Part shown: positions 25,301-52,300 of the stretch, one piece after another
Layout: each line of letters begins with the position of its first letter
Numbering within the stretch: position 1 is the stretch's first letter
From: Ophelia neglecta
Taxonomy: Eukaryota
Direction of reading: 5' to 3'
Assembly: GCA_965285935.1 (NCBI GenBank)
Contig: OZ260666.1
Span: forward strand, 61,690,001 to 61,754,000
Length of the DNA stretch: 64,000 nucleotides
Notes under the pieces: generated by a model
Databases searched by the model: none
What the model was told of the DNA's origin: nothing
The model's input: the letters and a program-made list of their open reading frames with translations, nothing else
Made by a program: the position numbers and the translations under genes

Positions 25301-28300
25301 GGGAGTTCCAGGGCATATCACCATAGAGAAGGTGGTGAAGATAGAACCACCTCCTGTTGATCCAGATCAGGTGACCTGTGTACAAAAACACAAAAGAAAC
25401 AAAATACTGACCTTCGCATGTGGACATGACTTGTCAACCCTAGCTACCTCGTTAGATATAGAATACAGTCATTCTGCAGGCAGCACAGCATAGAGTCTAA
25501 CATATAAAACCAAAAGAAGATTTTTTTCTGCAAATAAATATATTTGCTGTAGGCTTGTGTTTAGATCTGCAGGATGGCTGTTGATTCAGGGTGAGGTCTA
25601 TGAGTGGGTAACTTACTGACAATGTAAATGTACCCCACTGACATAGTCTTGACCCATATTGATTACAATTTATCTTTACAGATTCTATATATGTATAAAT
25701 GCTATGGGGCCTGAGCTTCTCTCCTATGGAGCTAGCAGTGGCCATGATGACATTCTAGCATGGTGGCTGTCTATCATGATCCTCCCATAATCATTTTCTT
25801 GGCTACAACATGGCATAACTTCCTGAAGCCACAAGAAACCAAGAAAACCCCAGCGAACTAGTACTATCTTGACAACACCTATCTGCATGTTTAACTCCAT
25901 TTTGGATTGTATTTCAGGAGTATATAGCTCTCAGTTGGGTTAATGTGTGTCGAATACTGTACAAGTCTTAAAACCCAAAGTTTCACCATCCCACATGTGA
26001 ATGGTACACCCACATAATTGCCTTAGTTCAGATTATACAACATGCTTGCAGTTAAGTTTATGACAATTCTATAAAATTAAATTTTCCTGGCTAATTTTTT
26101 CATTGATTTGAAATTTTCATTGGAACTGAGAAAAAAATTATCACTTGTTAAACCCTCCGCCTTACAACCAGGAGAGGTATTGTTTCAACTGTGCTTTATA
26201 AATGGGTGTTATATGGGTGTTACGCGGTACCCCTGCTTTGCAGCCTTTTTCTTCAAATCATTGCCATTCACACAATAGGGGTACCTCAAACGTAAAGACT
26301 TGTATTGTTACTGTGGCACAAATTAAACTTATAGATAATATGCTATTATTAATGATACCTCTGAATGTAAATGTTCTCAATGTCAATTAAGTCACTTGTT
26401 CTGTAGTAAAAAGCTTTAAATACATAACAGTGTAGCTTACCTAGTTGTGTTCTGTAGACAACCTGTAGATCACTTATATAATATATGAATATGGCTGCTA
26501 ACATGTCCCAGATTTAAATAAATAAATATATGATTGTGTACTTGTCATGGTTCAGCAGAATCTAGTACTATATGCACAATCAACATTTAAAACCCATTAT
26601 TTTGTTGTCCACACTTCTCTGCTTTTTGGGATATGCTTATTCTATAATTATTGCAGGTGTTTACACTACTTTGCTACAAATACTTGCCTTCAATTACTTT
26701 TCATAACTGATATTTCAGATAAAGCTGGCACAAGTTAAAATATCTTATGTATCTAGCTACAGTGTTAAACTAAACAAAACCAGCTGCTGACTAATTTGCA
26801 TCTAGATATTACAATTAAAGTTTTCATACTGCTTGTCCATCAAATGGTCAAATTCCTTACACATATATTTCAATCAGTGAATTAAAAGATATAAAGCATG
26901 GACTAGTTGTGACCTTGAGTGACCTAAAATCAAGAGATAAGATGTACATGTACAGCCTGAGTGACAGTTTTATATGTTGATTTCAGCCCCTGAAGGAGTC
27001 CAAAAACGTAGTTATGACCAACCCGGACTACCAGGCTACTCTCAAGTACAAAGACTCTGTGCGCAAAGACACAGGAGTGTACACCATCACTGCCACCAAT
27101 GAGTATGGTAGTGACTTTGCAGACATTGAGGTTATCGTTTTAGGTACTGCATAGCACCTCTTATATGTTCAACCATTTACAGGAGCTAACTTGTTTTACG
27201 AGCACTCTTATCTAGATTCACGATACATATGGATGCCAACTCATTGTTTAGTGTTATTTCAAATGGCTCGTTCATGTATGGCATAAATAAGGGAATGCAA
27301 ACTTGCATCTAATTTAAAGTACTTAGCTATAATATACATACAAAAAGCTTTTGCTTATACCTGCCTTCTACTTGATCAGTAATATGTCTTGTTTAAAGGT
27401 CCACCTAGTCGACCAAAAGGACCTCTAGAGGTGTCAGATGTGACTGCAAACAGTGCCAAGATCTCTTGGGACAAGTCAGAGGATGATGGTGGCCAACCTA
27501 TAACGTATGTTATCCATTAAACAGTCTTACTTGAAAATTATTTTAAATACATTTTGGCGGGAATTTAAGTATACTTGAAAACAAAGTTTCCTCATTGAAT
27601 TATTTTGAGTGTATTATTTCTGATGTTCCAGTGCTTACACCATTGAGAAATTAAACCCTGCAACTGGCAAGTGGGACAAAGTAACATCCTTTGCTCCTAA
27701 AGATGCAGTAGAATACGAGGTGCCCAAATTGAAGGAAGGTGAAGATTACAAATTCCGTGTGATGGCTGAAAATGCTCAAGGACTCAGTGAACCGCTTGAA
27801 ACAGACAAAGCCACCAAGGCCAAGAATCCTTTCAGTAAGTTCTTCAAAGTTGCCTGTGGACAAAATTGGTTAGTAAAAGAATTAATGTTTTCTTCTCCTG
27901 AATATTGGACGTGAAGGGGAATTATTCCTTGTTTGCCTTACAGCCAACCCAAACAAACCTGGAGCCCCAGAGGTAGAGGACAGCGATAAGAAGTTTATCA
28001 AGGTCAAATGGGAGCCACCAACAAAGGATGGCGGTGCCCCAATCAAAGGCTATCATATCGAAAGGAAGCAACCTAATGCCCGATCATGGACCAGACTCAA
28101 TAAAACTCTTCTCGATGTAAGTCTGCCACACATGATTATAACATTTCACAGCACAATACTGTAATCAACCATATCATTTATAAGAGTGGTGAATTTTACA
28201 CTTATGGCTTCTGACCCTATTTCTGTCACTTCAATATTTCCTTGTCACTTAAAACAAGCTGCAAAGCAGTTCACCAAAATTTTACATCATTTAGTTTGAT

Positions 28301-31300
28301 GTCCCTTATATTCCAACCATATTCAGTTCATTTTATTAGGCCTATGTCTTATTTCATTGCATGTAGATTTACACATTGGCAAAACAAGGATAGTCAAGCC
28401 ATATTAAAGGCAAGAATAATTAAGTAAATACACAAAACATACTAGTATTGAGGACAAGAATCTGCTCATGTGTCCTCTTGAAACTCAACAAAATAACAGA
28501 GAATCACTCTGAACCAAAAGAAATCATTTAAGTTTAACTTACAACTGAAAAAAATGGTGCAATTAATTATTAAATGCAGTGTTAGTGATTTATCTTTCAT
28601 ATGATGATAATTTCAAAATACCTAAAAATTATTTTATGATGGGACTTGTATTGAGGGACCATTTCATAAAATGATGAAGAGTTAAGTGCATGCTCACAAA
28701 GCCCGAGGAGAGAGCTAATGTAAGTAGTTTGTTGGCTGTAATGCACTCATCCATAGTCCCTAGGACCTGCCTGTAGGAGCCACCCTATTTCTGCGCAGAA
28801 TAATGGCATCCTAATTTTCACTTGTAAACAAACTCATTAAATATCATGGTGGGACAAAAACATGTTAGAATGGTACAGGGTAAAGACTGTTTTGTGGCTG
28901 CAAATTTTTGTAAAAAAGGCCAGGGACTCTCTAATGATGGCAGGAAGGAGGTACGAATAGGCACATACAGTAGCAATTACCCGACATGATACTTAGTAAT
29001 TGATATTTACTGGACAATTTTTATCCCTGACCGCCGTCATGTTACTAACCCGCTGTAAACTGCGACTCACACGTACAAATTGGATGACATGAAGTCATTG
29101 GATGACATGAAGTGAATCAGCATACTGGAAAGAATTTATTGTTCACCCTCAGCCATGATGTGGCGCCAGTAGTATTAGTAAAACACTGTTCTATTACAAG
29201 ATAAAGCTGCCTGATAACATGTGCTTCTGTACATATTGCAGTATGAGGTAAAGATAAGTTAGTGGATTGTCACATTTCAAAAATATAAATCATGATTGCT
29301 TATTATGAAAATCCCTGTACAGTCTGCCATATCTGAGTTCATGTTTCTTGTTGCAGTCTTCATTGAAAGGATTATGTTTGTGATGTTACTTGCAGGAGCC
29401 AGAGTTTAAGGATGAGCACGTCCAGCCTAACCAGGTATACGAGTACCGTGCTGTAGCCGAGAATGCTGGCGGAGAGTCAGAACCTAGTGATGCTTCCAAG
29501 CCAATCAAGGCCCGACCACTAAAACGTCAGTCTACTCCCAACACCCACAAGCTTGATTTACAACTAAGATAATAGGACATTGTCTTGTTTTACATTCTTG
29601 ACAACTCGGTAAACTCGTCCTATACTAAGCTCATGGTTTGTTACTTTATTTGTACAATTAACGGTCGATTTCATCTGACAATTTTATCACTTTTGACAGA
29701 GGCTCCCAAAGCTGACCTTGCCAACATGCTGGGAGGCAAAGACATCAGGGTGAGAGCTGGACAACCATTAAAGATTGACGTCCCCATTGAGGGATCCCCA
29801 GTACCTCTGGTCTCATGGAAAAAGGATGGCAAAGATGTACCTGAATCGTCCAGGGTAAGACTTACAGTTTAGTTTCTTTTTTATCTTGCTCTGTAGGAAA
29901 GAAGTCCTTGCTACTTGAACAATTACAATTCATAAGCCTTTACTTGTTTGCAAATTCTAGGGGTGGGGGTGGGGGAGACAGTTGAGATTGAAGTGGGGGG
30001 GGGGCTACTTAATTTGAAATATTAAAATATAATTTTTGAGAAATTGGCTCTGATTTCAGTGTACCCAGAAAAGCGATGATGACAAGGCAGTACTAGACAT
30101 ACCAATATCACGAAGAGATGACACTGGAAAGTACACTGTCAAACTCAAGAATGACTATGGAGAAGCCGAGGGGGACATCAATGTCATTGTTTTGGGTAAG
30201 TAGCTCGTCTTACATTTGATTGTACTATAGTATTTATTACTTTTAAACACCCTGCTTACCTCCACAACTTGACTGCATTCCCTAAACCTGCTGACATTAT
30301 TAAGAGGGCAGTATTGAAGCTTTACAGTGCTATGTTGGTTTACTCAGAAATTGCTGTCTGTAATAATAATATCAATCTTTTATTTTAAACCTTTGATTTT
30401 TCTACTGAATAGGTATAGTTATCATATTGTGTTATTTTTTCTCTTGTTTTGATTGTTTTATGCTCATGAAATTATAATTTACAAAAAGTGAAATACTGAG
30501 TTTAGCATTTCCTTACCACTTTTGCATTCACTTTATTTTGTTCATTGTTTTTATTTGGTCTAACCACTTTTAAGTTAACATTAAGATTAGTTTACTGCAC
30601 AAATATTTACTAAATAAACACTAAAATGCAGCTTAGAATAAAGCCTCTGGAGCTAGATTACTTAGTTAATATACTGGTTCTTAATCTAGATGCATAATAT
30701 TGCAAAATTCGGAAGTACTTGTATTTTAAAAGCCTGATGGTGTGAGAGTATTGGTATGCCACTTGAGAGCATTTCTCGGCAAACCACATTTTTGTCTCCT
30801 GTTCCAAGGACCCTGCTTACATCTTGAAAGGCTATTGTTGGGTGGTTAATGCCATGATTTGTATAAGTTGAGTTTTCTTTTTATCCAGACAAACCAGCTC
30901 CACCTGAGAATGTGAAAGCTAAGGATGTGTTTGAAGACCACTGTACCATTGCCTGGGAGCCTCCCAGTGATGATGGTGGTGGGGAAATCTCAGACTATCT
31001 GGTGGAGAAATGCCAGGAGGGTTACACTTTCTGGGAAAAATGTCCTGGTCTGGTAAAAGACAACACACTCAATGTGAAAGGTTTAGAGAAAGGCAAAAAG
31101 TACAAATTCCGTGTGAAGGCTGAGAATATGTATGGTATAAGTGAGCCAGGGGAGACAGATAAGGCTGTTTTGGCTAAGAACCCATATGGTGAGTACACCG
31201 GTAAAACCTTGCATACCATTTAACTGCATTCATAAGCCAATCTTTCATATCTTTGTACCATATGGTGTCTTCACCTTGATACTAACACTCACCCTGGTTT

Positions 31301-34300
31301 ATTCCGTTTCCAGAGGCGCCCACCGAACCACGTGATTGTGCAATAAGTGATTATGACAAGGAGTCGGTCACACTTAAATGGAAACCACCCAAAGATGATG
31401 GAGGCAATCCCATCAAAGGTAAGTAAAATACAGGATTATGGACCATATAACATACAGTGAAACATGTGAATTAACACCACCCAAGGGACTGGCAAATGGT
31501 TATCAGATTTTGGAGGTGGTCTCTCTTTAGACAGGTTATCTAACATTGAAAGTATACATCATGGTCCTCCTATTAGTGGTCTGGATTGGCAGGTGGTCTG
31601 ATATTAGAGGTGGTCTTTAAGGCAGATTTGACTGTATGTCTCAAGAAAATTATAATCAGTCAAAATTAAACTGTAGATAGTATAGTATATTTATAGTAGT
31701 TATAAGTTTGTGGTTGGTTTCTCAGGCTATCAACTGGAGAAGAAGCCAAAGAGAGGAGGACACTGGACCAAGGCCACACCACACCTAACCAAGCCAACAG
31801 ATACCTCTGCCAAGATTGACAACCTTCTCGAGGGAGATGAGTTAGAATTTCGTGTGGTAGCTGTGAATGAAGCTGGCCCTGGCAAACCCAGCCAGTCTAC
31901 TGGACCACATCGTGTTCGTGATCCCATTTGTAAGTCTCCCCATCATTCATAATACAAACCACTTAGACAATGGAATTTAAAATTCCACAGTTTTTTTTTC
32001 CTTTTTTACCTCTTGAAATATTGCAAAATAGAATTTTGGGCCAATTTTGAGTTTCTATACAATTCCTGTTCAGTATCAGACATCTGGTAATTTTTGTTAT
32101 CTAAAATTTATAATATTGCTATTAACAGTCCAGGCAGGCCCTCCTGGCCAACCCAATCTGGATGAGGTCACCCCCAAACACATCAAGTTGTCCTGGGACA
32201 ACCCTACTGATACTGGGGGTGGAGAAATCAAGGGATATATTGTGGAGAAAAAGACCAAAGATGGAGACTGGGAGGAAGTGCCAGGAATGGTTAAAACACC
32301 CGAGGCTACCGTCCCTACTAAGGAAGGGGAGGAGTACCAGTTCAGAGTGAAGGCTGTCAACGAAGTAGGTCCTGGTAAACCTAGCCGTCCAACAGCCCCA
32401 AAAGTGGCTGAAACACAACCAGAGAAACCATCTATTGATCTGTCTGGTATTAAGGACATTGTAGTGAAAAGAGGACAGGATATAAAGATCAAATTGCCTG
32501 TAAAAGGCTTCCCAGTTCCTACTGCGACATGGAAGCATGGTGACAAGGACCTCAAGGATTCTCCAAGGACAAAGGCAGATGTGAAGCCTGATGAAGTACT
32601 CCTCACCACAACTAAGGCTGAGAGAGGAGATACTGGCAAATACACAGTCAAGCTGAGCAATGACTCAGGCACATGTGAAGGCACAGTCAATGTCACTGTC
32701 CTTGCCCCGCCTGCTGCCCCTCAAGGACCACTTGAGGCTACAGATGTTGGACCTAACCATGTCACGCTCCAATGGAAACCACCAGCGGATGACGGCGGGA
32801 GAAAGCTTGAAAAATATGTCTTGGAGAAAAAGCCAAAAGGCGCCAAAAATTGGCAGAAGGTACCTGGTATAATTCGTCCAAATGAAACTGAAGCCACAGC
32901 CAAAAATCTGGAGAAGGGTGAAGAATACGACTTCCGTGTTGTCGCTGTCAATGAGGAAGGCGAGAGTGAGCCTCTTGAAACTAAGGCTGCAATCAAAGCT
33001 AAGCATCCTTTTGGTAAGTGAAGGATTTACAAGTTATACTAATGGATCTTCATCAGCAAGCCTGTCTTATATATTCATATAAAATAGTTAACTAGTGTTT
33101 TACCTGTATTTTGTAACCCCCAGATCCTCCTGGTAAACCAGGAGAACCTGAATGTGAAGCTACCACTGTGGATTCTATCACCTTGACATGGGACAAACCT
33201 CTCAAGGATGGAGGTAAACCAATCAAGGGATACATTGTGGAGAAAAGAGAAAAGGGATCCAAGAAATGGACCAAGTAGGTTACAAGTCTGATAACATTCA
33301 ATGTGGCAAACATTATCAAACAATACAAACTCTTATTTATGACCCATATAAATAAATCAAACCACAAAGTGAAAGCAAAAACAAAATTCTATTGAGTTAA
33401 ATATATATATTGTGTTTGGAAATGCAAGTAACAAACTTGTCTGATTTCTGCCAAATGTTTATCAGCTCATGCTCAGCCTATAACACTTCCTCCCTGTCAA
33501 TTTCACCCTCCCAGCCCCATTAGATGTTGTTAAGGGGTTAAGTCACCATATTGTTGTACAGCAAGTGTTATAGGTACTAGGGTAGTGCCACTTATCCTAA
33601 ACAAATTTCCCACACCTATAAAGTTTATATACGAAATATAGTATCTGTGACCCTATGGTTGCAAAGCAACAGCCACATGATGGCCACGGTGGTATACGTA
33701 CCCTACTTTTCTTTTTTCAATAAGTGTAAATACACAAGGCATGACTTAGTGTTCACTGCTTGTAGAGCCACTCCAAGGGAGGTACCTGATGAGGAGTGTA
33801 CTGTGAAGGGGCTGATAGAAGGCAAGCCGTACGAGTTCCGTGTGGCGGCTGTCAATGATGCCGGGCCGGGTGAATGGGCCGAAGGAGAAAAAGCATTTAA
33901 ACCTGCACCACCACCTAGTATGTATTTCTGAAGCTATGCACTATATGGTTATCGATTTAGGTCTAAGTGGGAAGAACTGTGAAATAATGAGTAATGACAT
34001 TAACAAGTCTCATCTTAGTGTAATAACAAACAACAGGCAAAAAAGCCAATAATAATTGTTGTATGACTCTACATACTTTTTCCTTTCAAATCTTTTAGGT
34101 GCTCCTAAGATTGTGATGGATCCATTTGGACAAACTGTCAAGGCACATGTGGGTGAACCATTCAGAGTGAAGATCCCATTCAAGGGCAGCCCCATTCCTG
34201 ATTCAACCTGGTTCAATGTGAGCAAAAACCATTTGAATAAATAATCACACAGTTTCTCACAATGAGGCACCTTATATGTAGGGTTTTTTATCTGGTATTT

Positions 34301-37300
34301 CGGTATATCTTTTTATATTTCCAGGGAGGTAAAGAAATCACTCCAGATAGCCGTATATCTTTCGAGACAAACCCTGGTGATCCTCTTGGGGAGGTTGTGA
34401 TGGTCTGCAAATCTGCGGTGAGAGATGATGAAGGAAAATACAGCATCACCCTAAAGAACCCTAAAGGCCAGGACACCGTATCTGTCAACGTGGCGGTATT
34501 AGGTACATGATCACTTTGTTTAGTACATGGATGTGACAGTATGGCTTGTACGCTCTTATACTTACCACATTATCTGGTATCTAGTCAGTCCAAACTTCGG
34601 GGTAGGGGGTACTTATGAATCACTGTGAACATCTGTCCATCCATTCATCCTTGGTCTTGGGGTAGTACATGTACTTGTTTCTCACAGCAATATTGGATTT
34701 CTCTGAAATTTGAAGAAAATGTTGTGTAGATGTGCATAGATTTAGGAAATTATGCTTTGCCAATTTGTTCAGGTCTAAATATGGTCATTCATACTTATAA
34801 TATTTTAAAAATATTATGATGAGAATAGAATATTTAATAATTTTATGTGATTTTCATAAGTACATCACCTATCCCAATATTTGACAGATTATATTGAAAG
34901 TGGGCAGTGAAAGAACATGTCTGTTATTGGGCATGAGAAAAAGGAGTTGTGTTCCTCACGGCTTTTGAGGCCAATGACGAGTGAAATGTTGGGCATTTTT
35001 CTTTTTTGAGGGGCTCCACTCATTAAGTGGGATATGTCATTTGTTAATCTTATCATGATGTTATATTTTGTTTTGGCAGACAAGCCAGGTGTTCCTGGGG
35101 GACCTCTCGAGGCGTCTAAGGTCACACCCGAGTCTTGTAAGCTGGCCTGGCACCCACCAAAAGATGATGGAGGCTCCCCTATCAGTCACTATGTAGTAGA
35201 GAAGAAGGACAAGTCTTCTGGAAGGTGGACACCAGTCAACAAGTTCTGCCGCACTCCGGAATGTGATGTAGGAGATTTAGATGAGGGAGAAGAATATGAA
35301 TTTCGTGTGGCTGCTGTCAATGACAATGGTACAAGTGAACCACTGGTTACAGATACACCAATTACAGCCAAACATCCATTTGGTAAGACACTTTTATCAA
35401 GGTAGACAACTTCAAATCCACTGAGGGACTTATTGAAAGATGAGCATTATCCTGTGTTAATTGAGACCATTACACTTTGAATGTTCTTGATTTAAATTTA
35501 TTTATTGGATTGACCAATTGAAAATTCTTTTTATACAGACACACCCGATTCTCCGGGAACTCCTGAAATTGACGATGTTGATGAGGACTTTGTCAAGCTC
35601 TCCTGGACTAAACCTAAGAAAGATGGTGGAGATAAAATCATTGGTTATGTAGTGGAAAAGAAGGAGAAGGGTGCTAAAAAATGGACCCCAGTCAATGAAA
35701 GGTTCCCATGTAAGGACACCAAAATAGTGGTCAATGATGTCGAGCCAAACAAGGACTATGAGTTCCGAGTGAGAGCCAAGAACAGGGCTGGTCTTGGTAA
35801 ACCAAGTGAAGAGTCGAAGATGGTCACCACCAAACCAAAACCAAGTAAACAGATTTGGCACTTCAATATTATTGCTTAACACAGCATTTTGTTAAAAACA
35901 ATGCAGTGAGCTCAGATAATTACATGTACATTTTATATTGACCAGAGAAAGCTGGCATGCCTGGAACTCCAACAGTGGAAGATGTCAACAAGAACTCCGT
36001 GGACCTGGCATGGTCAAAACCTAGGAATGATGGTGGAAGTCCCATTAAAGGTATAGTTGTGACAAGGTCAACAAACCTAAAATGGCTGCTCTCAAATGCT
36101 ACATGTTTAATACATGCAGGCAATGTTTTTTTGGAATAAAGACACAAAGTATAATTGTTATTTAATCAACAGGATATCAAATAGAAAAGAAAAAGATTGG
36201 TCAAGACTGGGAGAAGGTCAATGACCGACCAATTCCTACAGAGAGTTTCACAATACCAGATCTTGAAGAGAATGAGGAATATGAATTCCGTGTAGCTGCC
36301 ATCACAGATGCTGGAGTGGGAGAAGAAAGTCTAGCTACTGCTCCAGTCAAAGTCAAGAAAAAAATACGTAAGCTAACAGTTTGCTACAGCTCTGTCAAGA
36401 AAAGAACATGTCAGCTAGCAAATATTATGTCAGATTATATCTTAAATATGGACAGTGATGAAATTTATCTTCAAGAATTTATAACTTAAAAAAACTACCT
36501 CAGAATCATATGGGACCGTCCAGGCGATGTTCATTTTCTATTGGCTACCAGGCATTTTTTATTTTATTTTATTTTTTTAAAGCTGTCACAGTGTCTGTCA
36601 CTAGCAGCAAAATCCTTTCCCTAACCATGTGGCTAAAGTGGGTGTAAAATTCCAGCCAAATATATTAACAAGCCAATTTTTCCACAACCTATATGTTTAA
36701 TACAATGTTTCTGTTTAACTTGGGAAGTTTAAATGTCAGTCGATTAAGGTTTTGGACCCCTACATATATTCTATTACTTTAAACAGCCGAAACAGTCCCA
36801 GAGTTTGACTCCAAACTTCGCAATGCCACTGCTAAGCTAGGCGATGATGCTGTTTTTGAGGTGGAACCAAATGGACATCCTAAACCCACGGTTAAATGGT
36901 AAGCAAATTTAAAACTTATAGTACCTTAACTTGCATGTTTGTTTTAAGTTTGAAAAGATATTAAATATGTCATCAGTTTACCAAGACAACCAATTGTGTA
37001 TAAAGGTACAAGGACGGAGTGCCTATCATTCCTGGTTCCAAGTACCGCATCAAGGAGGATGGAGACAAGGTTCAGCTCATTGTGAAGGATGTAGATGAGG
37101 ATGATGATGGAGAGATCACCTGTGAACTGGTGAACTCCAAGGGACGTGATGAGAGCAAAGCCAAACTCAAAGTCCAAAGTAAGTTTCAATAAAGCAAAAC
37201 TTAAAATAACGAAATGTACAATCTCTTGCAGCTAAGTTTTCTAACTTTGCAGCCTTCACACCTCTCTGTGACCACTCAGACTATAAACGCCTTAATGTTT

Positions 37301-40300
37301 GTTACAGAGCCACCAGAAGAGCCTAAAGATGTGGTCATTGCTGACTTTGACAAGGGCTCTGTCACACTCAAGTGGAAACATCCCACAGATGATGGAGGCT
37401 CTCCAATCACAGGTGGGTTCAAAGTTCATCAAGAATTGGTTCTATAAATAATGATTTGTGATAAAATTTAAGCAATCTCACTTTTGTGTTTTCATATCAT
37501 GACTTTGCTTGACCTTACCAGGATACCAACTGGAAAAGAAGCCTGCCAGAGGAGGCTCCTGGCAAAAGGCTAGCCCAAAACTAATAGATCCCAGCAAATC
37601 AACTGGAAAGATCGAGGGTCTGACAGAGGGAGACAACTTGGAGTTCCGTGTGGTGCCTGTTAATGATGTAGGACCTGGTAAACCTAGCAAGTCCACAGGG
37701 CCACACAAAGTCAGGGACCCAGTCCGTGAGTAGTTTGTACCCCTTCACAGTCAAATCACTTGGTATATACTACTCAACATCCGTCTGGCATATTAATGTA
37801 ACACAATATGGTATGTTTTAGATTCAGCTGGATCTCCTGGTCAACCTAAGTTGGATGAGATCACCCCCAACCACATCAAGCTGTCCTGGGACAAACCCAT
37901 TGAAGATGGAGGAGCACCAATTGAGGGTTACATTGTAGAGAAAAAGACCAAAGACGGAGACTGGGAGGACGTTCCCGGAATGGTGAAGGGTAATGATGTC
38001 AGTGTACCTGTCAAGGAAGGGGAGGAGTACCAGTTCAGGGTGAAGGCTGTCAACTCTGCAGGGGAAGGAAACCCCAGCAGACCTACAGCCCCTGTCAAGG
38101 CTGAGAAACAGCCAGAGAAACCCTCCATCGATCTATCAGGTATCAAGGACATTACTGTGAAGGCAGGACAGGATATCAAAATAGCTCTGCCTATTAAAGG
38201 GTTCCCAACTCCGAAGGCTGTGTGGAAAAAGGATGATGACGATGTGCAGGACTCCCTGAGAACTTCAACTGATGTAAAAAAAATTTGCAATGTCATCGAA
38301 AATTTGAAATTCCGTATGGTATCATACCGTTATTGATTCAGTTTATAGTATTGGCTTAATAGTTGATAGAAATATCTGGATAACATCAAAAAAAGCAAAA
38401 GTGACAAGCAGAGTTAACTCTGGGCTATTTCAAATTGTTAGTGACAGATCTTGTGTTATAAAACTAACACTTTAAACCAAAGAAGTTAACAATTTATTTG
38501 CTTAAGTACTAGGAGAAATCTCAGAAGCTGGAGTAAGTAGATAATCAAGACAAAATTAATGAGACAACTATATATCATCTCCTGTAACTTACTGGCTCAT
38601 CAGTACTTTCTTATAAACTAACCATTGTGTTTATTAAATAGGTTAAACCAGATCAAGTTACCCTGACCACATCCAAAGCCAAACGGGGAGACACTGGAAA
38701 GTACAAGGTACGTCTTACCAACGATTCTGGAACAGTGGAGGCTGAAGTCAATGTTATTGTACTGGACAAACCTGCCTCCCCAGGAGGTCCTTTGGAACCA
38801 GTGAAAGTTAGTCCAAATGCTATCACGGTTGCTTGGAAACCCCCCAAGGATGATGGTGGTGCTAAGATTGACAAATATGTCTTGGAGAAGAAGCCCAAGG
38901 GAGCAAAAAGATGGCAAAAAGTACCTGGACATATAGGTCCGAATGACACAGAAGCAACAGCTGGTAATCTGGAAAAGGGAGAGGAATATGACTTCCGTGT
39001 GATGGCCGTAAACGAGAATGGAGAGAGTGAGCCCCTGGAGACAGAGGAAGCCATCAAGGCTAAGCACCCTTTTGGTAAGTGTGATATGCATATTAGAGTG
39101 TACTGCTGGTTATTGTGCAAACAGAGTCCCACAATACCTCAATATATAAGGTATCAAATAAAAATGATTTTTTATTGAGGCATGAATTAATGTTAACATT
39201 GTAGATCCTCCTGGAAAGCCTGGAGAACCAGAATGTGCTGGAACAACTCCAGATTCTATTACATTGACCTGGGATAAACCTCTGAAGGATGGTGGCAAAC
39301 CCATTACTGGTTATGTTGTAGAGAAAAGAGAGAAGGGTTCCAAGAGATGGACAAAGTAAGCAAACCGATAATGGAACATTTCTGCAATGTCATGCTCATC
39401 ATTTGAAATAAAGAATATATTATGTTTTTCTGTTTTTCTCATAAGAGCTGTACATGGAGAAGTACCTGATGAGGAGTGTACTGTGAAGGGACTGATAGAA
39501 GGCAAGCCGTATGAGTTCCGTGTGGCCGCTGTCAATGAGGCCGGACCAGGTGAATGGGCTGAGGCAGATAAGCCATTCACCCCAGCAAAACCTCCAAGTA
39601 AGAAACACTACTTTACTCATCTTCCATATTAAAGAGACTCAATATTAAAATTTATTTAAAAATAAAGGAAACAGCAGTATGCTTTATTATCTTTTATTGC
39701 AGTAGTTCCATCTAATATTTCTTTTTGTTTCAAGGTGCTCCAAAAGTTGTCCTAGATCCATTTGGTAACGACATTAAGGTCAATGCTGGAGAACCATTTA
39801 GAGTTAAAATCCCTTTCAAGGGAAGTCCACTACCTGAGTCCACTTGGTTCAATGTAAGCTATTATGTTTTATCTTGCGCTCAATATGTAAATCAGAGTTT
39901 GCTATAGGATTTGTTTGTGCATTTTCCCAAAAGTATTTAAGAATACCCCCTGTATTTTACAGGAGGGTACAGAAATTAAGCCAGATGATCGTATCAGTTT
40001 TGATACTGTTGCTGGTGATCCCCTTGGTGAGGTGACAATGATCTGTAAATCAGCAAAGAAAGATGACCAAGGAAAATACACAATAACACTAAAGAACCCA
40101 AAAGGATCAGACACCGTTGCTGTTAAAGTAACAGTCATAGGTAGGTTGAAAATATCTCAACATGCCCTTATATATATTTTATGAGAGTCGCTATACATGT
40201 ATTCAGTCTACAATAGTTAACATACCAAAGGTGTAAACTATATATTTACCTTGATACAGACAAGCCAGGAGTGCCTGGTGGCCCTCTGGAGGCGTCCAAC

Positions 40301-43300
40301 ATCAGGCCAGACTCCTTAAAACTAGCGTGGAACCCACCTAAAGATGATGGAGGCTCCCCCGTAAGCCATTATGTAGTAGAGAAGAAGGACAAGTCTTCTG
40401 GCAGGTGGACTCCTGTCAGTAAGTTCTGTCGTCATCCAGAGTGCGACGTGGGAGACCTGGATGAAGGAGAGGACTACGAGTTCCGGGTGTCTGCTGTTAA
40501 TGACAATGGTCAGAGTGAGCCTCTGACTACAACAGGGCCCATCACAGCTAAATATCCTTTTGGTAGGCCTTTATTTACCCAGTTCAATCTGAGTTTGATA
40601 CAAAATATATAAATCTTTCTCCAACCAAGGTGTGGGGCAAAAGTTATAGTTTCCCATAATTCAGAAAAAAATGAAGTATGAATAAATGAAAAGTAATATA
40701 TATTTCTTGGCATTCCTTCTTTAAAACAATCTGAAACTGGTTTCTATGCCGCAATCATAATGAGTCTACTGTGGTCCTTTTTGTAATAGATGTAAATTTG
40801 GTCCTTTCATAGATACTCCCGGATCTCCTGGAGCTCCGGAAATTGATGATGTTGATGAGGACTTTGTCAAACTGTCCTGGACCAAGCCTAGGAAGGATGG
40901 AGGAGACCCTGTCACTGGTTATGTTATAGAGATGAAGGAGGTAGGAGAGAAAAAATGGAAGCCAGTGAATTCCAGGTTTCCTTGCCGAGACACCAAGATG
41001 GTGGTTGGTGATGTCGAGCCAAACAAGGACTACGAGTTCCGTGTCAAGGCTGTAAACAGAGCAGGTCAAGGTTCACCCAGTGATGAGTCGAAGGTGGTCA
41101 CCACTAAACCAAAGCCAAGTTAGTGTTTATACACAAGCTAGATTTAGCTAAATATGTTATTGAGCAGCTGATGTCAATGCTGATAGATAAAAAGACAGAT
41201 AAGGTGTAATATATGTACTTGCTAGTTTGAATAAATTGCACATTGCAGAGAAAGCTGGAATGCCCAGTACACCAAGGGTTGATGATGTGGGTAAAAACAA
41301 TGTTGCCCTGTCATGGGACAAACCAAAAGATGATGGTGGAAGCCCAATAAAAGGTATGATCTCTTTTAAATTGGAAAAGATATGGTGGTTCTGATTTCGT
41401 GTGAATGTATATATTTATGACTATGATCTTATTGAGATGGTTTTGTCAACATTCCCATTTAATTTTCCTAGGATACCAAGTAGAGAAGAAAAAGCCAGGT
41501 GGTGGCTGGGAGAAAGTCAATGACCGTCCAATTCCAGGGGAGAGTTTCACAGTGCCGGATTTAGATGAGGGTGAGGAATATGAATTCCGAGTGGCTGCTG
41601 TCACAGATGCTGGTACCGGAGACCCAAGCTTTGCTACCGCTCCGGTCAAAGTCAAGCAAAAAATACGTGAGCAAATCATATTGTACCCTACAGCAAAGAC
41701 ATTTATTTTAGTAAGCTTCATTTTCATAAATTTCCAATGCAGATCTACCAATATTCCATGATCCTTTTCACTTACAAACAGCTGAGACAGTACCTGAGTT
41801 CAACGCGAAACCTCGTAATGCCACTGCCAAGTTGGGAGAAGACGCAGTGTTTGAGGTAGAGCCAAATGGACATCCCAAGCCAGAAGTCAAGTGGTAAGTA
41901 GTTCTTATTTGAGAATGGTCAGAAGTACTAAAAGTGTGCAGGTAATGCGGGCTACAGTGTGAACATAACACGTTTTCAGTTTACGTGAACAAACTACAAA
42001 TGGACCCAGTAAACTGGCATTGATGCAACATAAACCTAACTGGCTGATTTATGTAGAAAGATGTATAACTTTCTAATTCTTAAAGTATATTAAAGAGCTG
42101 AGGAGGTACATGTATTTATCATTACAATTGACCCAACATGCAATACCATTCGCCATCTGGTGGGCATCGCAGAACTAAGGTTTTGGACTTCCTGGTCGAC
42201 CACTTTTCGCGAGTTACTGCGCAGCCTGCCGCGCAGTTTAAACAGGTGTAGCTTTCTCAGGGCTGACACCGCTCATGGCCTGACAGGCTGTCCCCAGTTA
42301 TTCCACGCGAAGTATTTGGGATCTCCGATGGCAACTCCTCGATAATTGTTCAATTGTTCTGGGTCAAAGTATCTTGAACACAGTGTAGATCTTTTGTTTA
42401 TATTTAATTTGTCCACGATCATGCTGTTTTCCTTCAACGATTTGCCTTCTCTTCGTACCAGGCGCCGCCATCTTGCCACGGCCGCCGGGTCGTCTCGGGG
42501 CCATTTAACCCAAGATATTTCTGCCATCCAAGGATACTTGTCCAGATGGTTAATTTTTCTGCTATGCGAGAAGCACTCTGCTGCCTCGCAGATAAAAACC
42601 ATCTAATGATCTTCCTTTCATTCGTTTGTAACCTCAAAATAACGTTAGACCGCGACGATCTCAGCAGACCATGTAAGACGCCATGCAATGTTTATGAGAG
42701 CTTGGGTACGCCTACTGTTTTGGTCGACTTTTTTCCGCAATGCATTGCGCGATCGTAGTTCTGCGATGCCCACCAGATGGCGAATTGTATTGCAGGTTGG
42801 GTGAATAGGAAGCCTTGTAGTTTTGTACTGCTCACCATATAGTTATTTCTCAACAGGTACAAGGATGGAGTGCCTATCATTCCTGGTGCCAAGTACCGCA
42901 TCAAGGAGGATGGAGACAAGGTTCAGCTCATTGTGAAGGATGTAGATGAGGATGATGATGGAGAGATCACCTGTGAACTGGTCAACTCCAAGGGACGCGA
43001 TGAGACCAAGGCAAAACTCAAAGTCCAAAGTAAGTTTCAATAAAGTGTTGAAAATGCATGCCACCTAAATTAAAAGGAAAGTAGATATGAATCAGTGGAA
43101 TGACCCCTGAAGAAGTCAAAGCAAGGGACACCTGAGAACTTGATAGCCTAGGCCTTCTAACCATGCTGTTGACGGTTGTATCTCAATTTTGCTCAAGGCT
43201 GTAGCTGAGATGTCAAATCTGTCAACTTGGTGTGACGCACCCACCACCCTCCCCCTGCCCAAATACCCTACCACTTCCTTTCAGCCTTCTACTGCTACCC

Positions 43301-46300
43301 CCCCCCCCATTCCTCCCTCCTACTTACAAATGTAAATAACAGCTGTCAGCTGAACCAGTGCAGACATCCCACTATCCCCGTCACTTGAACTCACCCTTCC
43401 CCAGGTTAACTTCGATAATGAAATACAAAATAGTTTTTAGTACTTGTACACACCTCCAACTACCCTATTATGCCCCTTACCCACAACTAGCTCTCCCCTC
43501 ATATCAATCCCATCATCCCCCCCCCCCCCCCCCAATGCCTTCGGTTCCCTCTAGCCACTCCTATCATGGCTGAGCAGTGTCTAGACCTGAGTGGGAATTA
43601 CAAGGTTAGCCAGAGTCATCACAGCCGAGAGGAAGGTTAATTTGCTGATCTGGAGAATATTATTAAGTGAACTTGTGCTTTTTGGGTTGACAGTATGATA
43701 AAGGCATGGCAAGGAAAACCATAAGTGATCTTAGCCTTTGTGCTCCCAGTATTCTACTTAACTCTTACTTCTATAAATATTAACTAGGTGACATTGCCTT
43801 GGGAGATATCAATTCTCAAGAGTCAGGTAGTTGTTGCTTATATAAGGCATTCATCCTTGTCAGTCGCGGACACACTGTTATGTTAGCTTCTGCACCAGTA
43901 TGTTTATGAGCTTCAGTGTCCAACGCAATGAGTGTATGTGGCAGTCTTGAGAAATTCTTCAGAAGCCATGATTAAGGGCATGAGTATAAATTAAAAATGT
44001 GAAATGGGTTAGACTTTTATGACTACTCAAACAAATATAATTGCAAGAATATATAAAATATTGATGCCAGAGAATCCTAGGTATTGATAATGCTGCGGGT
44101 TGTGAGCATTCTTCTCACCTTCTTATATTTTACAGAGCCTCCAGAAGAGCCTAAAGATGTGGTCATTGCTGACTTTGACAAGGGCTCTGTCACACTCAAG
44201 TGGAAACATCCCACAGATGATGGAGGCTCTCCAATCACAGGTGGGTTCAAAGTTCATCAAGAATTGGTTCTCTTAATAATGATTTGTGATAAATATTTGA
44301 GAAGCCTAGGTTTTATGTATGTCATATCTTGACTTTGCTTGACCTTACCAGGATACCAACTGGAAAAGAAGCCTGCCAGAGGAGGCTCCTGGCAAAAGGC
44401 TAGCCCAAAACTGATAGATCCCAGCAAATCAACTGGAAAGATTGAGGGTCTGACAGAGGGAGACAACTTGGAGTTCCGTGTGGTGCCTGTTAATGATGTA
44501 GGACCCGGTAAACCTAGCAAGTCCACAGGGCCACACAAAGTCAGGGACCCAGTCCGTGAGTAGTTTGTACCCCTTCACAGTCAAATAACTTGGAATATAC
44601 TACTAAACATCCGTCTGGCATATTAATGGAACACAATATGGTATGTTTTAGATTCAGCTGGATCTCCTGGTCAACCTAAGTTGGATGAGATCACCCCAAA
44701 CCACATCAAGCTGTCCTGGGACAAACCCATTGAAGATGGAGGAGCACCAATTGAGGGTTACATTGTAGAGAAAAAGACCAAAGACGGAGACTGGGAGGAC
44801 GTTCCCGGAATGGTGAAGGGTAATGATGTCAGTGTACCTGTCAAGGAAGGGGAGGAGTACCAGTTCAGGGTGAAGGCTGTCAACTCTGCAGGGGAAGGAA
44901 ACCCCAGCAGACCTACAGCCCCTGTCAAGGCTGAGAAACAGCCAGAGAAACCCTCCATGGACCTATCAGGTATCAAGGACATCAAAGTCAGAGCCGGACA
45001 GGATATCAAAATAGCAATCCCAATAAAGGGCTATCCAACACCAAAGGCCGCTTGGAAACATGATGACGATGATGTCAAGGACTCTCCGAGAACTTCCACT
45101 GAGGTCTGTTCACCACTTCTTTCTTAACTAAATACTTGCAATGTGTTCACACTTAAAGTGCAAACTAAGCTATATTTTATCCTGCAGGTGAAGCCAGACA
45201 AAGTGTTGCTGACCACGACTAAGGCAAAGAGGGGCGACACTGGAAAGTATAAAGTGCGCCTTACCAATGATTCTGGCACAATTGAGGGTGAAGTCAATGT
45301 TATTGTACTGGACAAACCTGGGTCCCCAGGAGGTCCTTTGGAACCAGTGAAAGTTAGTCCAAATGCTATCACGGTTGCTTGGAAACCCCCCAAGGATGAT
45401 GGTGGTGCCAAGATTGACAAATATGTCTTGGAGAAGAAGCCTAAAGGGGCCAAGAGATGGCAAAAAGTGCCAGGGCACATTGGTCCAAATGACACAGAAG
45501 CAACGGCTGGTAATCTGGATGAAGGTGAAGACTACGACTTCCGTGTGATGGCTGTGAACGAGCATGGAGAGAGTGAGCCTCTGGAGACAGAAAATAGCAT
45601 CAGGGCTAAACATCCATTTGGTGAGTAAATACCCCACAGAGGAGTAAACAGTTTTAAGACTTTCTTTGTAGTGCTTGAAGGAAAAGAAGAAATGATGAGC
45701 CACCTTTGTTAATCACTTATAAGGGAGATTTTGCCAGATTTTCCTCTCTTGTGATTAGTTAGCATGATTTTAGGTATTTCAATAGATGAATAACCCCAAT
45801 CTCTCCCTAGAATGTAGCAAATGTATTGTACACTCATAAGAGGCCATGTAAAGAGAGGGCTGACCATAACATTGTACCATAATAGTAGTAAGAATACTAA
45901 TCATCAAAACTATAATCTCCAAAGTAGATCCTCTCTATCTATATTTCTTGTTTCTTTGCTGACTGGTCATGCTATGTCTGTATGAGACATTATGATACCT
46001 GGGACTGAGGTGGACTTGTTGATACACCTTCACTTCTCATGCCCAAGGTCCACTGGCCAATCCTCAGCGTGGTACTTAAGGTCGTTTTAAGACTTGCACC
46101 ACAGGTTGGTAACACACGCCCCTTGAAGAAAAGAGTGTATGTGTAGTATGTAGTATGCAGGGAGAGTCAAACCCTGACATGCTAAAAACCTCAAAGGGGC
46201 AACCCCAACGCCCTGGCTCCCAGATTTAACAAGATGTGTTGACTATGCCACAGTCCCAGCTCCAACAAGTGTGATGAAATAAAATTAATATTTCTTGGGG

Positions 46301-49300
46301 TATTGTGGTAGTATTATAGACATGATTTTTGAGAATGGATGGACAGCAGGGCATACTAATTGCATCATGATGGCCATCTTTTTGGTTGAAAAATTATCTC
46401 CGCCACGAAAAAATATTGACCAACACACTGTGGTTGGCCGTCTTGTTTTTGCAACTGAAAATTTGGATGGCATGATTTGACCTTCAAGCAGAAGTCAATG
46501 TCAAGTTGGTAGCCATAAAAAGGTTCCCTGTACATGACTTGCTATTAGTTTTGTACCCATCAAAAACCTCTCTGTATATCACATCATATAAGTGGTCAAC
46601 ACATTTTATATGCCTATCTTGCACCATTAAGCCAGATGAGCTGGACGGACCGACAGAGAAATGAGCAAAAAAGTATCATGACTGAATGCATTACCATCCT
46701 TGATGTTGGCACTCTTAGGGGCAAGTCAAGTTAGATAACCATATCTGAAATTGTTTTTGTTAAATCCACCAGACAAGTGGGACAGAAGGACGGACCAACC
46801 CTAAACTACAATGTAATAGCCCCCATTCATCTCTATGAGTGGCAGGGGACTAAAAAGTGCTCAGCCTAATAAGCAACACCACTGAGGTCCACCTTGATGC
46901 ATGCAACATATAAGGGTACTCTTATATTGGATTTAAAATAATGTCCATATTGCAAATGATATGGTATCTCTAATAATGCAATACACTGATAGTTAAATTT
47001 GCTTTTTTGTCAGATAAATGATTAACTCCTTTTATGTAGATCCTCCTGGAAAACCAGGAGAACCAGAGTGTGAGGGAACTACGCCAGACTCCATCACCTT
47101 GAAATGGGACAAACCCAGAAAAGATGGCGGAAAGCCCGTCAAGGGATACATTGTAGAAAAGAGGGAGAAAGGCACCCGTAGGTGGACCAAGTAAGGCTGA
47201 CAGGTTTTAACTGTCCACAGTTTGCTTAAGGAAGTCAGCATTCTAGCTTTGTACGCAGTGATACTTTATGTGAAGTTGAATAAGTTGCCTCAACTACTTG
47301 TAAAAAGTAAATAAGTTTAGTATTCTGACCTATATAGTTTTATTTGATTAGAGCTGTACCTGGAGAAGTACCTGATGAGGAGTGTACTGTGAAGGGGCTG
47401 ATAGAGGGCAGGCCGTATGAGTTCCGTGTGGCTGCTGTCAATGATGCCGGGCCGGGTGAATGGGCCGAGGGAGAAAAGGCTTTCACACCTGCTGCTCCAG
47501 CAAGTCAGTAAACAAAATTATTTAATTATTTTCTTCTTCAGTAATTTACATTTAAACAAGAAGAATTAACTGCAATAAACATAAACATTAACAACCGTTT
47601 CTTTCTTTTTTAGGTGCCCCAAAAGCTGTGATGGACCCATTTGGACAAGACATCAAGGTCAATGCCGGAGAGCCATTTAGAGTCAAAATTCCCTTCAAAG
47701 GCAGTCCACTACCAGAGTCCACATGGTTAAATGTGAGCAGATTAGACGAGTCTTTATCATTTTTTTAAGCCTTGAATGAAACACCTGAGGTCTATCAAAT
47801 GAACCGGAGTTATTTAATTTTCTCTCTTACAGGAGGGCAAAGAAATTTTCCCAGATAGCCGCATCAGCTTTGAAACCAACCCCGGTGTACCGCTTGGAGA
47901 AGTTGTAATGATCTGTAAATCTGCCAAAAAAGATGACCAGGGCAGGTATAGCATCACACTGAAAAATCCCAAAGGCTCTGACACTGTCAGTGTCAATGTC
48001 ACAGTACTAGGTAAGACCAAAGGGGTTTGCTCTTTCTGAACAATCATTTAAACCAACAATAAGATAGGAACATTCCACAATATCCAATTTTCATTTTTAT
48101 TGGTGTGGATATTTTTTATTTTAGATTGGTACATACTTTTCCCTTTGCAGACAAGCCAGGAGCCCCCGAGGGACCTCTTACGGCGTCGGATGTCACCCCC
48201 GAGAGCCTGACACTGTCCTGGAAGCCTCCTGCAGACACTGGCGGCTCTCCCATCAGCCACTATACAGTAGAGAAGAAGGACAGGTCTGGCAACTGGACTC
48301 CAGTCAGCAAGTTCTGTCGCCAACCCAAGTACGAGGTTGGTGGCCTAGATGATGGTGAAAAATATGATTTCCGAGTGTGTGCAGTCAACGAGCAGGGAAA
48401 GAGTGAACCTCTCACAACTACCAAACCTATCACAGCCAAATATGACTTTGGTAGGTGTAACTAATAATTACTATTTACATAATTGTTGTCACTCAACATA
48501 GGCTTCCTGGCACAATTTTTTCCCTGTGTAATCCCTCCTTTACATTGTCCACCACAGACACCCCTGATGCACCTGGTCAGCCTTCCATTGATGATGTAGA
48601 CGAGGACTCTGTGACATTGTCCTGGACCAAGCCTCGCAGTGACGGAGGGGACAAGATCAAGGGGTATGTGGTAGAAGTCAAGGAGAAGGGTGGAAAGTGG
48701 AAACCCATCAATGACAGATTCCCATGCAAGGACACAAAAATGACTGGTATGGTATCATTGGGGTACTTTCAGTGTTAGCTAGTGTGTTGCAGATAATAAA
48801 TTATTGAATGACACTTTAATTATATAGATAAGCAGCAGTAAAGTATTCTCATATATATCTAAAATTCAAAGAGATGTTTTCCCCTTCAGTTGGTGACCTC
48901 GACAGGGGCACAGAATATCAGTTCAGAGTTCGTGCCAAGAACCGTGCTGGCAATGGAGAACCCAGTGATTCTTCAGATGCTGTCACTCCCAAGCCAAAAG
49001 CCAGTAAGTCATTATATGACCAAAGCACAATTGATATCTTTTCCTCCTACATTAATTACATCTTTGTTATTTTATGGATACAATTCATATATCTACTTGT
49101 TTCCCAATACAGAGAAAGCAGGCATGCCTGGTGTACCAAATGTGGACCGTGTAGACAGGAACAGTGTAGACCTGAGCTGGACTAAGCCCAGGAACGATGG
49201 TGGTAGTCCAATCAAGGGTTATCAGGTCCAGAAGAGGAAGCCAGGAGGAGACTGGGAGAAGGTCAATGAGCGCCCCGTATTGGGAGAAAACTTTACTGTT

Positions 49301-52300
49301 CCCGACCTAGATACAGGAGACGAATATGAATTCCGCGTGGCCGCCATCACTGATGCCGGAGTTGGAGATCCTAGCTTCGCCACCGCTCCTGTCAGGGTGG
49401 AGGACAAGAAAGGTTACAACTTCTACAACCAGAAACTATAATATTTAGTTAAAAAACAACTTAAGACCAGGTTAAATTAGGCCTACTACATATAGTATTC
49501 ATGTGTGTAATGATGTGACTGTATTTCAGCTCTCAAGAAGCCTGAATTCCTCAAAAAGCCAGAAAACACTTCAGTCCCAGTAGGAGGTGATGCTGTGTTT
49601 GAGATTGAGGCATTTGGCTTTCCCACCCCTACTGTTAACTGGTACGAACTCATCTTATTAATGTAAAATGATATCTTTAAATATGAAAAAGTAGAACAAA
49701 TGGCTTTGGCCTGTTGAATGTGTTAAATTATGTCATATAAATAAGGGATATGATATATTGTGATTTGCATTTGCAGGTACAAGGATGGTATTCCCATTTC
49801 CCCTGGTGCCAAATACAGAGTGAAAGTGGATGGGGACAAGGTACAGTTGACTGTGAAGGATGTCAGTCCAGGAGATGCTGGTGATGTCACATGTGAACTT
49901 GTCAATCCAAAAGGAAAAGAGACAGCTACAGCTAAAATGGGAGTCATAAGTGAGCCTCATTAAATACACCAGTCCATCTGAATCTATGTCATCCCTTAAT
50001 GAATTATGCCATTACCTCGATATAGAAAAAATGTTTATAACATGAACGTTCCTCTCTTTCAGAGCCACCATCATTTGATGGTATCGTTGGTGATCAGAGT
50101 GTAGACAAGGGAGATACACTGAAACTGAAGATCCCCATTAGTGGAGATGGACCATTCAACTTCAAGGTGAAGAAAGACAACAAAGAGATCCCCTTAGAGG
50201 GAGGCAGGATCAAATTCATGCCGTTTGATGACTACATTGTGTTCCAGATTCCAAGTAAGTCACACTGATTATGATTATTTTATGAATAATTTATAATGAC
50301 ACTAATCCCACTGGAAACATTCATTAGACAATAGCAACCCGTCTGGTGACTTTCACTTGACAACACCAACCCCTCTGGTGGCATTCATTAGATAACACCA
50401 ACCTCTCTGGTGACATTCATTAGATAACACCAACCTCTCTGGTGACATTCATTAGATAACACCAACCTCTCTGGTGACATTCACTAGATAACACCAATCC
50501 ATCTGGTGACATTCACTACATAACACCAACCTTTCAGGTGACATTCAGTAGATAACACCAACCCATCTGGTGACATTCACTTCATAACACCAACCTTTCT
50601 GGTGACATTCATTAGATAACACCTACCTCTCATTACCTAGACAACAGCGACCCCTCTACTAGCATTCATTAGACAACATCAACCCCTTATTGACATTCAT
50701 AAGACAAACCCCTGTGGTGACCATCATTAGCCAACACCAACCCCTCAGTCGACACTCACTAGATAACACCAACCCCTCTGGTGGCATTCACTAGACAACC
50801 CCAACCCCTCTGGTGGCATTCACTAGACAACCCCAACCCCTCTGGTGGCATTCACTAGACAACACCAACCCCTCAGGTGACATTCATCAGTCATCACCAA
50901 CCCCTTTGGTGACATTCATTATACAATACCAACACCCCAGTTGCCATTCACTAGTCATGTCCAATGTATCTGGTGATATTAATTAGGCATTTCGTGACAT
51001 TCATTAGACAAAACTAACCCCTGACATTTTGACATTCTATCTGGAAAGTACCATCGCAATCTTGTCCTCAATGATGTTACAATAGTTTTCCCTTTATCAT
51101 TGAAATAAAACCCCATACTCAACAACTATCTTCCGCTGTAAGACAGTCCTCTCAATCATTACACCCTTTCAGATGCTGATCCCGCTGACTCCGGTAAATA
51201 TAAAATTGAAGTGTCCAATGACAGTGGCACAACAGGCTGTGACTTTGGAGTTTCCGTCAAATGTAAGTTACAATATATGTAACCACTAGCTTCATGTAAA
51301 CATTGCAATTCATTAGTCATGTAGCATAGAATAAAAGAATAAAGATCTGATGGTTTGAAATCAAGTCCTATATGAGATGAGTCCAGATTGGTCTGATCTC
51401 TTGCAGCGCCCCCTGGTAAGTGCAGAGGACCTCTAGATGTGTCTGACATCTTCAAGAACTCCTGTAAACTGCGCTGGAAGCCACCAGAGGATGACGGTGG
51501 TTCCAGAGTCCAGAGCTACGTGGTAGAGAGAAGGGAGAAGGGCAAGCCCTGGTGGACCACTGTGTCATCCTTCTGTAAGGTAAACACAGTAATCTTCTAT
51601 TGCGAGGATAAAACTTCCATCATTGGTTGATAAGATGCCTTTTACAGACTAATACAGGTAATCAACATCAGTTGAGCTTAGCCTGATCCAACACATAGTT
51701 CAGTATTTGTGAATCATTGGCTGTCTAACAAGCAGTAAACTTGTTTTAATGTTGTGATGATTCAGGACCCAGAGTGTGATGTACAAGGCCTGTATGAGAA
51801 CAAGGAGTATGAGTTCAGAGTGGCCGCCACCAATGCTAACGGCACTGGCGACTGGCTAGAGATGGATAACTCTATTGTGGCAAAAATGCCATTTGGTAAG
51901 TTCTGTGAAAATGTGTATTTCAAAGGAAATTATAAAATAAAGTGCAAAGCAGTCAAAACTCCTCAGCCATATATTGTTAATGCATTTGATGCACCTGACC
52001 TTGAGACTGAGTTTAAAGTCAAATAAATGATAAAAGTAGATTCCCTGCATATTTGACTTATCTCACTGTCATTGTTCAGCCACAAGGAGGCATTGAACAT
52101 TTGGTGTTCTCTACATGACTTATGATAAAAGAGGTTATTATTTTCACATTTTCGTGCATCTGTCATTTTATCACTAGTAAATATTTTTGATGTACACTGT
52201 GAAAACAGCATTGAGGTATCATGACACACAATCAAAGTTAATAGGATGACCTCGTTAATAGGTCAAACTCCAAAAGTCCTGTAAAGGCAGTTAAAGTGTA

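Follow-up and report, generated by a model that had tools for sequence, protein, structure and literature searches.

A 64,000-base window of the Ophelia neglecta genome (762 Mb; the window is G000:C9:61,690,001–61,754,000) carries an intron-rich plus-strand gene, predicted to encode a twitchin, in which one block of ten immunoglobulin (Ig) and fibronectin type III (Fn3) domains is present three times. The middle copy, unit B, resembles the downstream copy (unit C) in its 5′ part and the upstream copy (unit A) in its 3′ part. B is probably a hybrid that arose by old unequal crossing-over in a two-unit A–C array and was later retouched, close to where the units meet, by gene conversion in short tracts. 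The three copies were recovered by comparing the window with itself; all are free of stop codons, their exon boundaries were set at AG/GT, and every unit boundary falls in phase 1.

31314–37178, plus strand: unit A, 13 exons, 995 amino acids (aa)
37308–43029, plus strand: unit B, chimeric, C-like 5′ and A-like 3′, 14 exons, 995 aa
44136–49949, plus strand: unit C, 14 exons, 993 aa
56037–58887, plus strand: twitchin kinase domain exons, same gene as the units, best PDB match 1KOB

On sequence grounds we assign the gene to twitchin, of the titin-like kinase family, which combines an Ig I-set/Fn3 array with a twitchin-type kinase near the C-terminus. Pfam returned fn3, I-set and Pkinase across the seven scanned exons, and fn3 or I-set in all five scanned exons of unit B. 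Compared with solved structures, the kinase exon matched twitchin 1KOB best (E = 6.5e-30 on 66 aa), and twitchins were the top three of eight PDB matches. Downstream of unit C, 22 exons splice in one reading frame into an open 1195-aa stretch containing the kinase (~56,037–58,887), and the gene is presumably expressed. Twitchins are muscle proteins that bind thick filaments and are regulated by PKA, and the same would be predicted for this one. Alignment to scored relatives suggests the domain order Fn-Fn-Ig-Fn-Fn-Ig-Fn-Fn-Fn-Ig for unit A. Exon mapping to relatives gives 29 Fn3 domains in total (5 before the units, 7 in each of the three and 3 after), where a one-unit form would count 5 + 7 + 3 = 15.

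The identity of B to its neighbors is very uneven. It is 86–99% to C in exons 1–4 (99% in exons 1–2) and 96% to A in exon 14, and the remaining exons are 71–86% identical to the nearer copy; along most of its length B is 15–35% divergent from both. Eleven of its 13 introns align to neither A nor C, and introns 1–2 align with C. Exons 5–13 differ at 24–64% of synonymous codons, and over most of B synonymous sites are close to saturated relative to A as well as to C. The motifs that an initial annotation of this DNA had quoted for the C-like front (DIKVNAG..SPLPES, ICKSAKKDDQ) and the A-like back (KKDKSSGRWTP, ETVPEF..K.RNATAKLG) are all found in the translations.

Informative nucleotide sites were counted as B=C:B=A. 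The counts are 32:0, 70:2, 109:13, 94:20, 11:20, 14:6 and 20:8 for exons 1–7, and 20:19, 29:44, 22:65, 6:12, 20:36, 9:32 and 4:53 for exons 8–14. B=C is favored in exons 1–4, 6 and 7 and B=A in exons 9–14; exon 8 is a tie, and exon 5 (39205–39355) is mixed, as had been noted initially. A maximum chi-square analysis of the 393 informative sites in exons 5–13 placed the change point at 40,070 (chi-square 23.2, permutation p = 0.001), and positions within 4 chi-square units of this maximum define the following interval.

40057–40556, plus strand: interval of the old C-to-A switch in B, best position about 40,070

The interval contains the intron 40141–40259, near which the switch had been predicted; the introns inside it align to neither copy.

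Segment trees (LG+G4) were built with outgroup loci from one metagenome scan (78 loci, from the best 80 of 126 matches; those examined had at least 250 aligned residues at 50% identity). In these trees B changes partner, from C to A, where the switch had been predicted. B groups with C over aa 1–200 (98/96), aa 201–397 (98/96; A+B rejected, p = 0.023) and aa 398–597, which corresponds to exons 5–8 (81/85; A+B p = 0.057, A+C p = 0.148). It groups with A over aa 598–938 (100/99; B+C rejected, p-AU = 0.0009) and in the last exon (93/94; alternatives p = 0.09). The cut at aa 598 was the prior guess of the initial annotation, and a cut at aa 570 was picked after the change-point result. When the young tracts described below and a stretch of exon 6 were removed, the 5′ part still gave B+C (92/97), with A+B and A+C rejected at p = 0.032 each. 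The trees were also the means of asking whether B might lack any consistent change of clade: the change is present, and it survives removal of the tracts.

Shared derived residues change from B+C to A+B around Fn5–Fn6, with small counts in the middle domains (B+C:A+B of 10:0, 14:0, 6:3, 5:1, 2:1 and 2:0 in domains 1–6, and 2:2, 2:6, 1:1 and 0:10 in domains 7–10). The old B–C and A–B distances are 0.22 and 0.26 substitutions per site, and the identities of the two halves, 167/200 (B–C) and 275/341 (A–B), are similar (Fisher p = 0.42). Synonymous codons differ at 102 of 214 positions (0.48) between B and C in the old 5′ part and at 114 of 265 (0.43) between A and B in the old 3′ part, against 0.53–0.58 for the other pairs. 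The two halves of B thus appear about equally old. A switch that persists, with halves of equal age, once the young tracts are removed matches the prediction of one old unequal crossover. The middle of the unit has a further property. In exons 5–8, A and C are identical at 167 of 200 aa, as are B and C, and the A–C identity of 0.835 at aa 398–597 exceeds that in the flanks (0.702, p = 0.0001). None of six control pairs has such a peak (p = 0.24–0.93). The peak would be explained by mid-unit homology persisting from a two-unit stage, the kind of match on which a crossover would act.

Superimposed on this pattern are short stretches in which the copies are far more alike.

37302–38128, plus strand: young tract common to B and C (44130–44958), two introns included, 23 differences, 5 of them in 616 exon bases
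38743–38895, plus strand: second young tract, B versus C exon 4, 3 differences in 153 bases, run test p = 0.0005
39462–39559, plus strand: exon 6 stretch similar in all three copies, 6–7 differences in 98 bases, run test non-significant
42855–43045, plus strand: young tract common to B and A (37004–37194), last exon and 16 intron bases, 7 differences in 191

The run test detected five B–C runs and one A–B run among 1084 polymorphic sites (p = 0.0005). The young tracts are sharp-edged and are best read as gene conversion; the exon 6 stretch is possibly an older conversion. The junction introns have only their first 16 bases in common, which marks the young stretches flanking them as distinct tracts rather than a single duplicated piece. 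The initial statement that the first exons of B are the same as those of C holds as a description, near-identity being evident, but this identity, like that of the last exon to A, is a later overlay of separate tracts and does not date from the original crossover. Contig depth, taken from collapsed contigs of three runs of one sample that may be the source of the assembly, is not a measure of copy number; it is roughly doubled in the young tracts (52 versus 27–37, 51–53 versus 22–34, and 23 versus 10–15). Loose contig ends lie at 37004, 37194 and 37302. In a second haplotype, 9 of 138 bases of a neighboring intron are different, about the level of the B–C intron difference in the tract, which suggests that the age of the tracts probably does not exceed that of standing alleles. 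A second haplotype about 6% different was seen at 31200–31341 and 38419–38556, indicative of high heterozygosity.

Introns and exon sizes had also been offered as evidence, and the outgroup loci allowed them to be polarized. The intron within the first Ig (aa 254) is, as described, present in B and C and missing from A. It also occurs in all three outgroup loci (L046, L049 and L067), and it was rejected as evidence for B+C because it is ancestral and was lost in A. The claim that B has the intron pattern of A was sustained in one part. The aa 763 intron is ancestral (both outgroup loci checked); C retains it, A and B have both lost it, and this loss is the only shared derived mark, for A+B, among the three introns. 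The aa 834 intron that A and B have in common carries no grouping evidence, being ancestral (two of two outgroup loci) and lost in C. The exon sizes were given correctly (303/306 in A and B; 300 and 189 + 114 = 303 in C) and fail as markers: the shorter exon 10 is a deletion confined to C, with no grouping weight, and the exon 9 indel is ambiguous, since outgroup loci L011–L013 match C and L010 and the protein P0070 match A and B.

We propose that a one-unit twitchin would have duplicated the ten-domain block to give A and C, which would have remained most alike in mid-unit, with homogenization there. A crossover of C with A between chromosomes, in or near exons 8–9, would have created A-[C/A]-C and added about 995 aa in frame. 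Synonymous sites and introns would then have diverged nearly to saturation. Finally, recent conversions anchored in exons would have acted between adjacent units, making A and B alike again at their ends and B and C alike again at their starts. An alternative that is possible, and a good deal less probable, dispenses with the crossover: the units would be plain duplicates whose inner parts were homogenized by long old conversions, or by repeated gain and loss, while the outer edges (the front of A and the back of C) diverged. Conversion is evidently active at the locus and is able to yield look-alike chimeras at constant copy number (PMC4041002). One-unit-offset identity peaks at the junctions and falls outward, and a large share of the sites at which B matches C or A retain the ancestral state, the edge copy being the one that changed (7 ancestral to 2 derived in Ig2; 9:2 in Fn5). 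This explanation needs two complementary conversions of ~3 kb, similar in age and meeting in one interval, whereas the observed young tracts are only 150–830 bases, and it does not by itself account for the A–C peak in mid-unit. Convergence under position-specific selection, by which junction-facing domains in a like protein context would be driven to the same residues, is very unlikely. The last Ig of A and of B precedes an Fn domain and that of C precedes an Ig, and the A+B signal is strongest there and in Fn6; however, the grouping extends to synonymous sites, a shared intron loss and intron sequence, which selection on the protein does not copy.

Two further explanations merit very little credence. 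A single recent unequal crossover might be suspected from the identity of the terminal exons to C and A, but it would have left B near-identical to a parent throughout. It was rejected on the 11 introns that align to neither copy and the synonymous divergence of exons 5–13, and the junction introns share just 16 bases. Equally hard to credit is an assembly error that joined reads or haplotypes of A to those of C. Near-identical stretches are present and the animal seems heterozygous, yet B is 15–35% off both copies over most of its length, and contigs of all three runs cover its own exons and introns with few differences and at a depth like that of A and C. These runs come from the one, possibly identical, sample and hence are not independent of the assembly.

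Several results weigh against an old crossover in a two-unit array. No old intron homology is left to mark a breakpoint, and three sequences alone cannot tell unequal crossing-over from two long old conversions. Exons 5–8 taken by themselves fail to resolve B+C (81/85, and 69/62 without the exon 6 stretch), so that any position between roughly exon 5 and exon 9 is possible for the switch. A 100-aa window in Fn5 (aa 607–707) leans to B+C and another (aa 403–502) favors A+C. The equal-age test is weak, because synonymous sites are near saturation. Among relatives, a 44,256-base ENA contig has at least two units (P0121, P0146 and P0163) and is not a proven two-unit relative. The 3′ halves of its units were not among the 120 of 545 matches listed, in which generic twitchin fragments were dominant. 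The Ig intron pattern is suggestive of orthology of P0121 with A and of P0163 with B/C, and trees neither support nor reject these pairings (p = 0.14 and 0.12). Lastly, exon 12 of the relic described below is assigned on a modest difference (126, 129 and 115 of 194 matches to A, B and C). The initial proposal of unequal crossing-over in a two-copy A–C array is retained for the tree switch and the equal halves, and amended in that the crossover would be old and conversion predicts the same trees.

The two-copy relatives, or alleles with two or four copies, that had been suggested as a check were sought. Contigs with one unit, three units and at least two units were found, and among them no clean two-unit relative or allele. 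One unit only is present in L011 and L012, which are intronless, and in L067, which has introns; in each the preceding Fn3 leads into a single unit and then the following block. L013 and P0070 start within the last unit and L078 ends within the first, so these are uninformative on unit number. A homologue search at 516–2000 aa gave one orthologue-grade match (P0070) among the 120 of 393 matches listed. Two exon-to-exon joints, 39529–40472 and 40494–47415 (the 2 listed of 54), were considered as copy-number alleles and rejected, since each of their sides spans just 20–23 bases of a conserved Fn3 motif. Among the joints listed, the contigs of the one sample gave no copy-number allele. A decayed, dispersed relic of the unit junction and of B-like exons (67–78% like B) lies 30 Mb away on the minus strand (G000:C9:31.963–31.965 Mb; L009:4037–6168). 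Its order, A/B-type exons 13–14, B/C-type exons 3–5 and A/B-leaning exons 11–12, is what would be expected if the copied region was chimeric already, although the support is modest at exon 12.

A second three-unit array was found in L010, a 17-kb intronless locus with two frameshifts from another animal, where three units stand ~3.0 kb apart at 2935–11935. The L010 unit takes in the preceding Fn3 and omits the last Ig, which gives Fn-Fn-Fn junctions instead of the Fn-Ig-Fn junctions of the O. neglecta gene; L046 is in the register of L010 and has at least two units.

30888–31189, plus strand: single Fn3 exon upstream of unit A, inside the repeated unit in L010 and outside it here

The middle L010 unit groups with the third over aa 1–530 (100/100; alternative p = 0.0008) and with the first over aa 540–899 (100/100; alternative p = 1e-8), the cut at aa 530–540 having been picked after the change-point result. 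The twitchin of this second animal thus appears to have undergone the same process. Units 2 and 3 of L010 are 89–99% identical over ~1 kb, and given this near-identity a mis-join in the assembly is possible. The different register suggests that the L010 triplication was independent of the one described here. In a tree of the single-copy C-terminus the two genes group weakly (70/80) and no one-unit animal is placed between them, which leaves the register as the only argument for independence. A common eleven-domain duplication followed by different single-domain losses is possible. In the JGI protein P0122 (unit aa 113–538), aa 103–254 group with L010 units 2/3 (74/60) and aa 297–530 with unit 1 (100/99); this unit is possibly another chimera with a different switch point. 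L010 (open reading frame 1, aa 682–978) and L078 (aa 1537–1837) have an extra Fn-Fn-Ig block before the unit relative to L011, L012 and the gene analyzed here, which is a second, smaller length variant.

It is doubtful, though worth stating, that a short twitchin with 15 Fn3 domains was lengthened at least twice independently, a ten-domain block of ~1,000 aa being duplicated and then tripled by unequal crossing-over with a chimeric middle, and that a fixed step in length was selected, as in a tunable ruler. If this were true, the gain of an equal number of domains by two arrays one domain apart in register would suggest that selection favored a set increment of length, for example one thick-filament repeat. 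The C-zone repeat of titin comprises eleven domains and spans ~43 nm, and the ruler idea, which leans on this analogy, is speculation.

The remainder of the window contains repeats and a candidate exon.

42126–42806, strand not assigned: MITE-like insertion with ~51-base terminal inverted repeats, in the last intron of B

All 40 scored of 336 candidates for copies of this element matched in the genome, at 80–96% besides the element itself, and the copies form two subfamilies (~91–96% and 80%). By contig depth, interspersed repeats in introns of unit A (~31450–31640) and unit C (~46340–46760) are high-copy. Minisatellite-like tandem arrays occupy 313–1019 (25-base period, 85–92% identity), 50289–51022, 56580–56906, 59380–59633, 61020–61733 and 63296–63465. 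A short open AG/GT-bounded stretch at 25293–25374 falls within an Ig between 24649 and 27145, at a place where L011 likewise carries an insert; it is a candidate for a small exon or an alternative one. Two more loci for Fn3-rich giant proteins lie on the same chromosome, at G000:C9:37.25–37.34 Mb and at 45.13–45.14 Mb; in the first the exons are long, and one for a kinase is 48% like that of the twitchin gene.

The mechanism proposed for B is already known; what is mildly new is that twitchin seems to have expanded in parallel in a second animal. Anti-Lepore HBB/HBD fusion duplications in mammalian beta-globin clusters result from misaligned crossover of tandem paralogues, which leaves between intact parents a hybrid with a downstream-type front and an upstream-type back; they arise repeatedly in separate lineages, with conversion overlaid (PMC4041002). 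Unit B has the same arrangement, C-type at its 5′ end and A-type at its 3′ end. The difference is that exon blocks within one gene are involved here, so that a protein gains ~995 aa with all three units in frame and no gene is added. Mussel catch-muscle twitchin (24 Ig, 15 Fn3 and kinase; 530 kDa; PMC12040844) has the same Ig/Fn3 array and C-terminal twitchin kinase, and a one-unit version of the present gene would also have 15 Fn3; the two extra ten-domain units bring the number here to 29. The mussel-like domain count is in keeping with a spiralian invertebrate. The segmental duplication of human TTN and the triplicate regions of NEB are likewise intragenic exon-block repeats in giant sarcomeric proteins and are prone to copy-number change (PMC9142044), but those vary among living people, whereas here the block consists of Ig and Fn3 domains and its copies have for the most part long been diverged. 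In metazoan domain repeats, concerted evolution is described as rare and enriched in host–parasite functions (PMC5100051). The recombination signal between repeat units of one protein is common to those cases and this one, which differs in concerning a muscle structural protein and a 3-kb coding unit. We found no paper on twitchin unit-number variation or chimeric units, in a search that left most subscription journals uncovered.

The locus provides a worked example, within one giant gene, of an array in which layers of different age can be read. Its near-identical exons are real and would collapse in short-read assemblies. The number of units of this twitchin segment varies among related animals (one, at least two, or three), and the second three-unit array has the same switch in its middle copy. 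Such natural length variants (~15 versus 29 Fn3) offer material for asking whether the length of invertebrate twitchin tracks thick-filament or sarcomere geometry.

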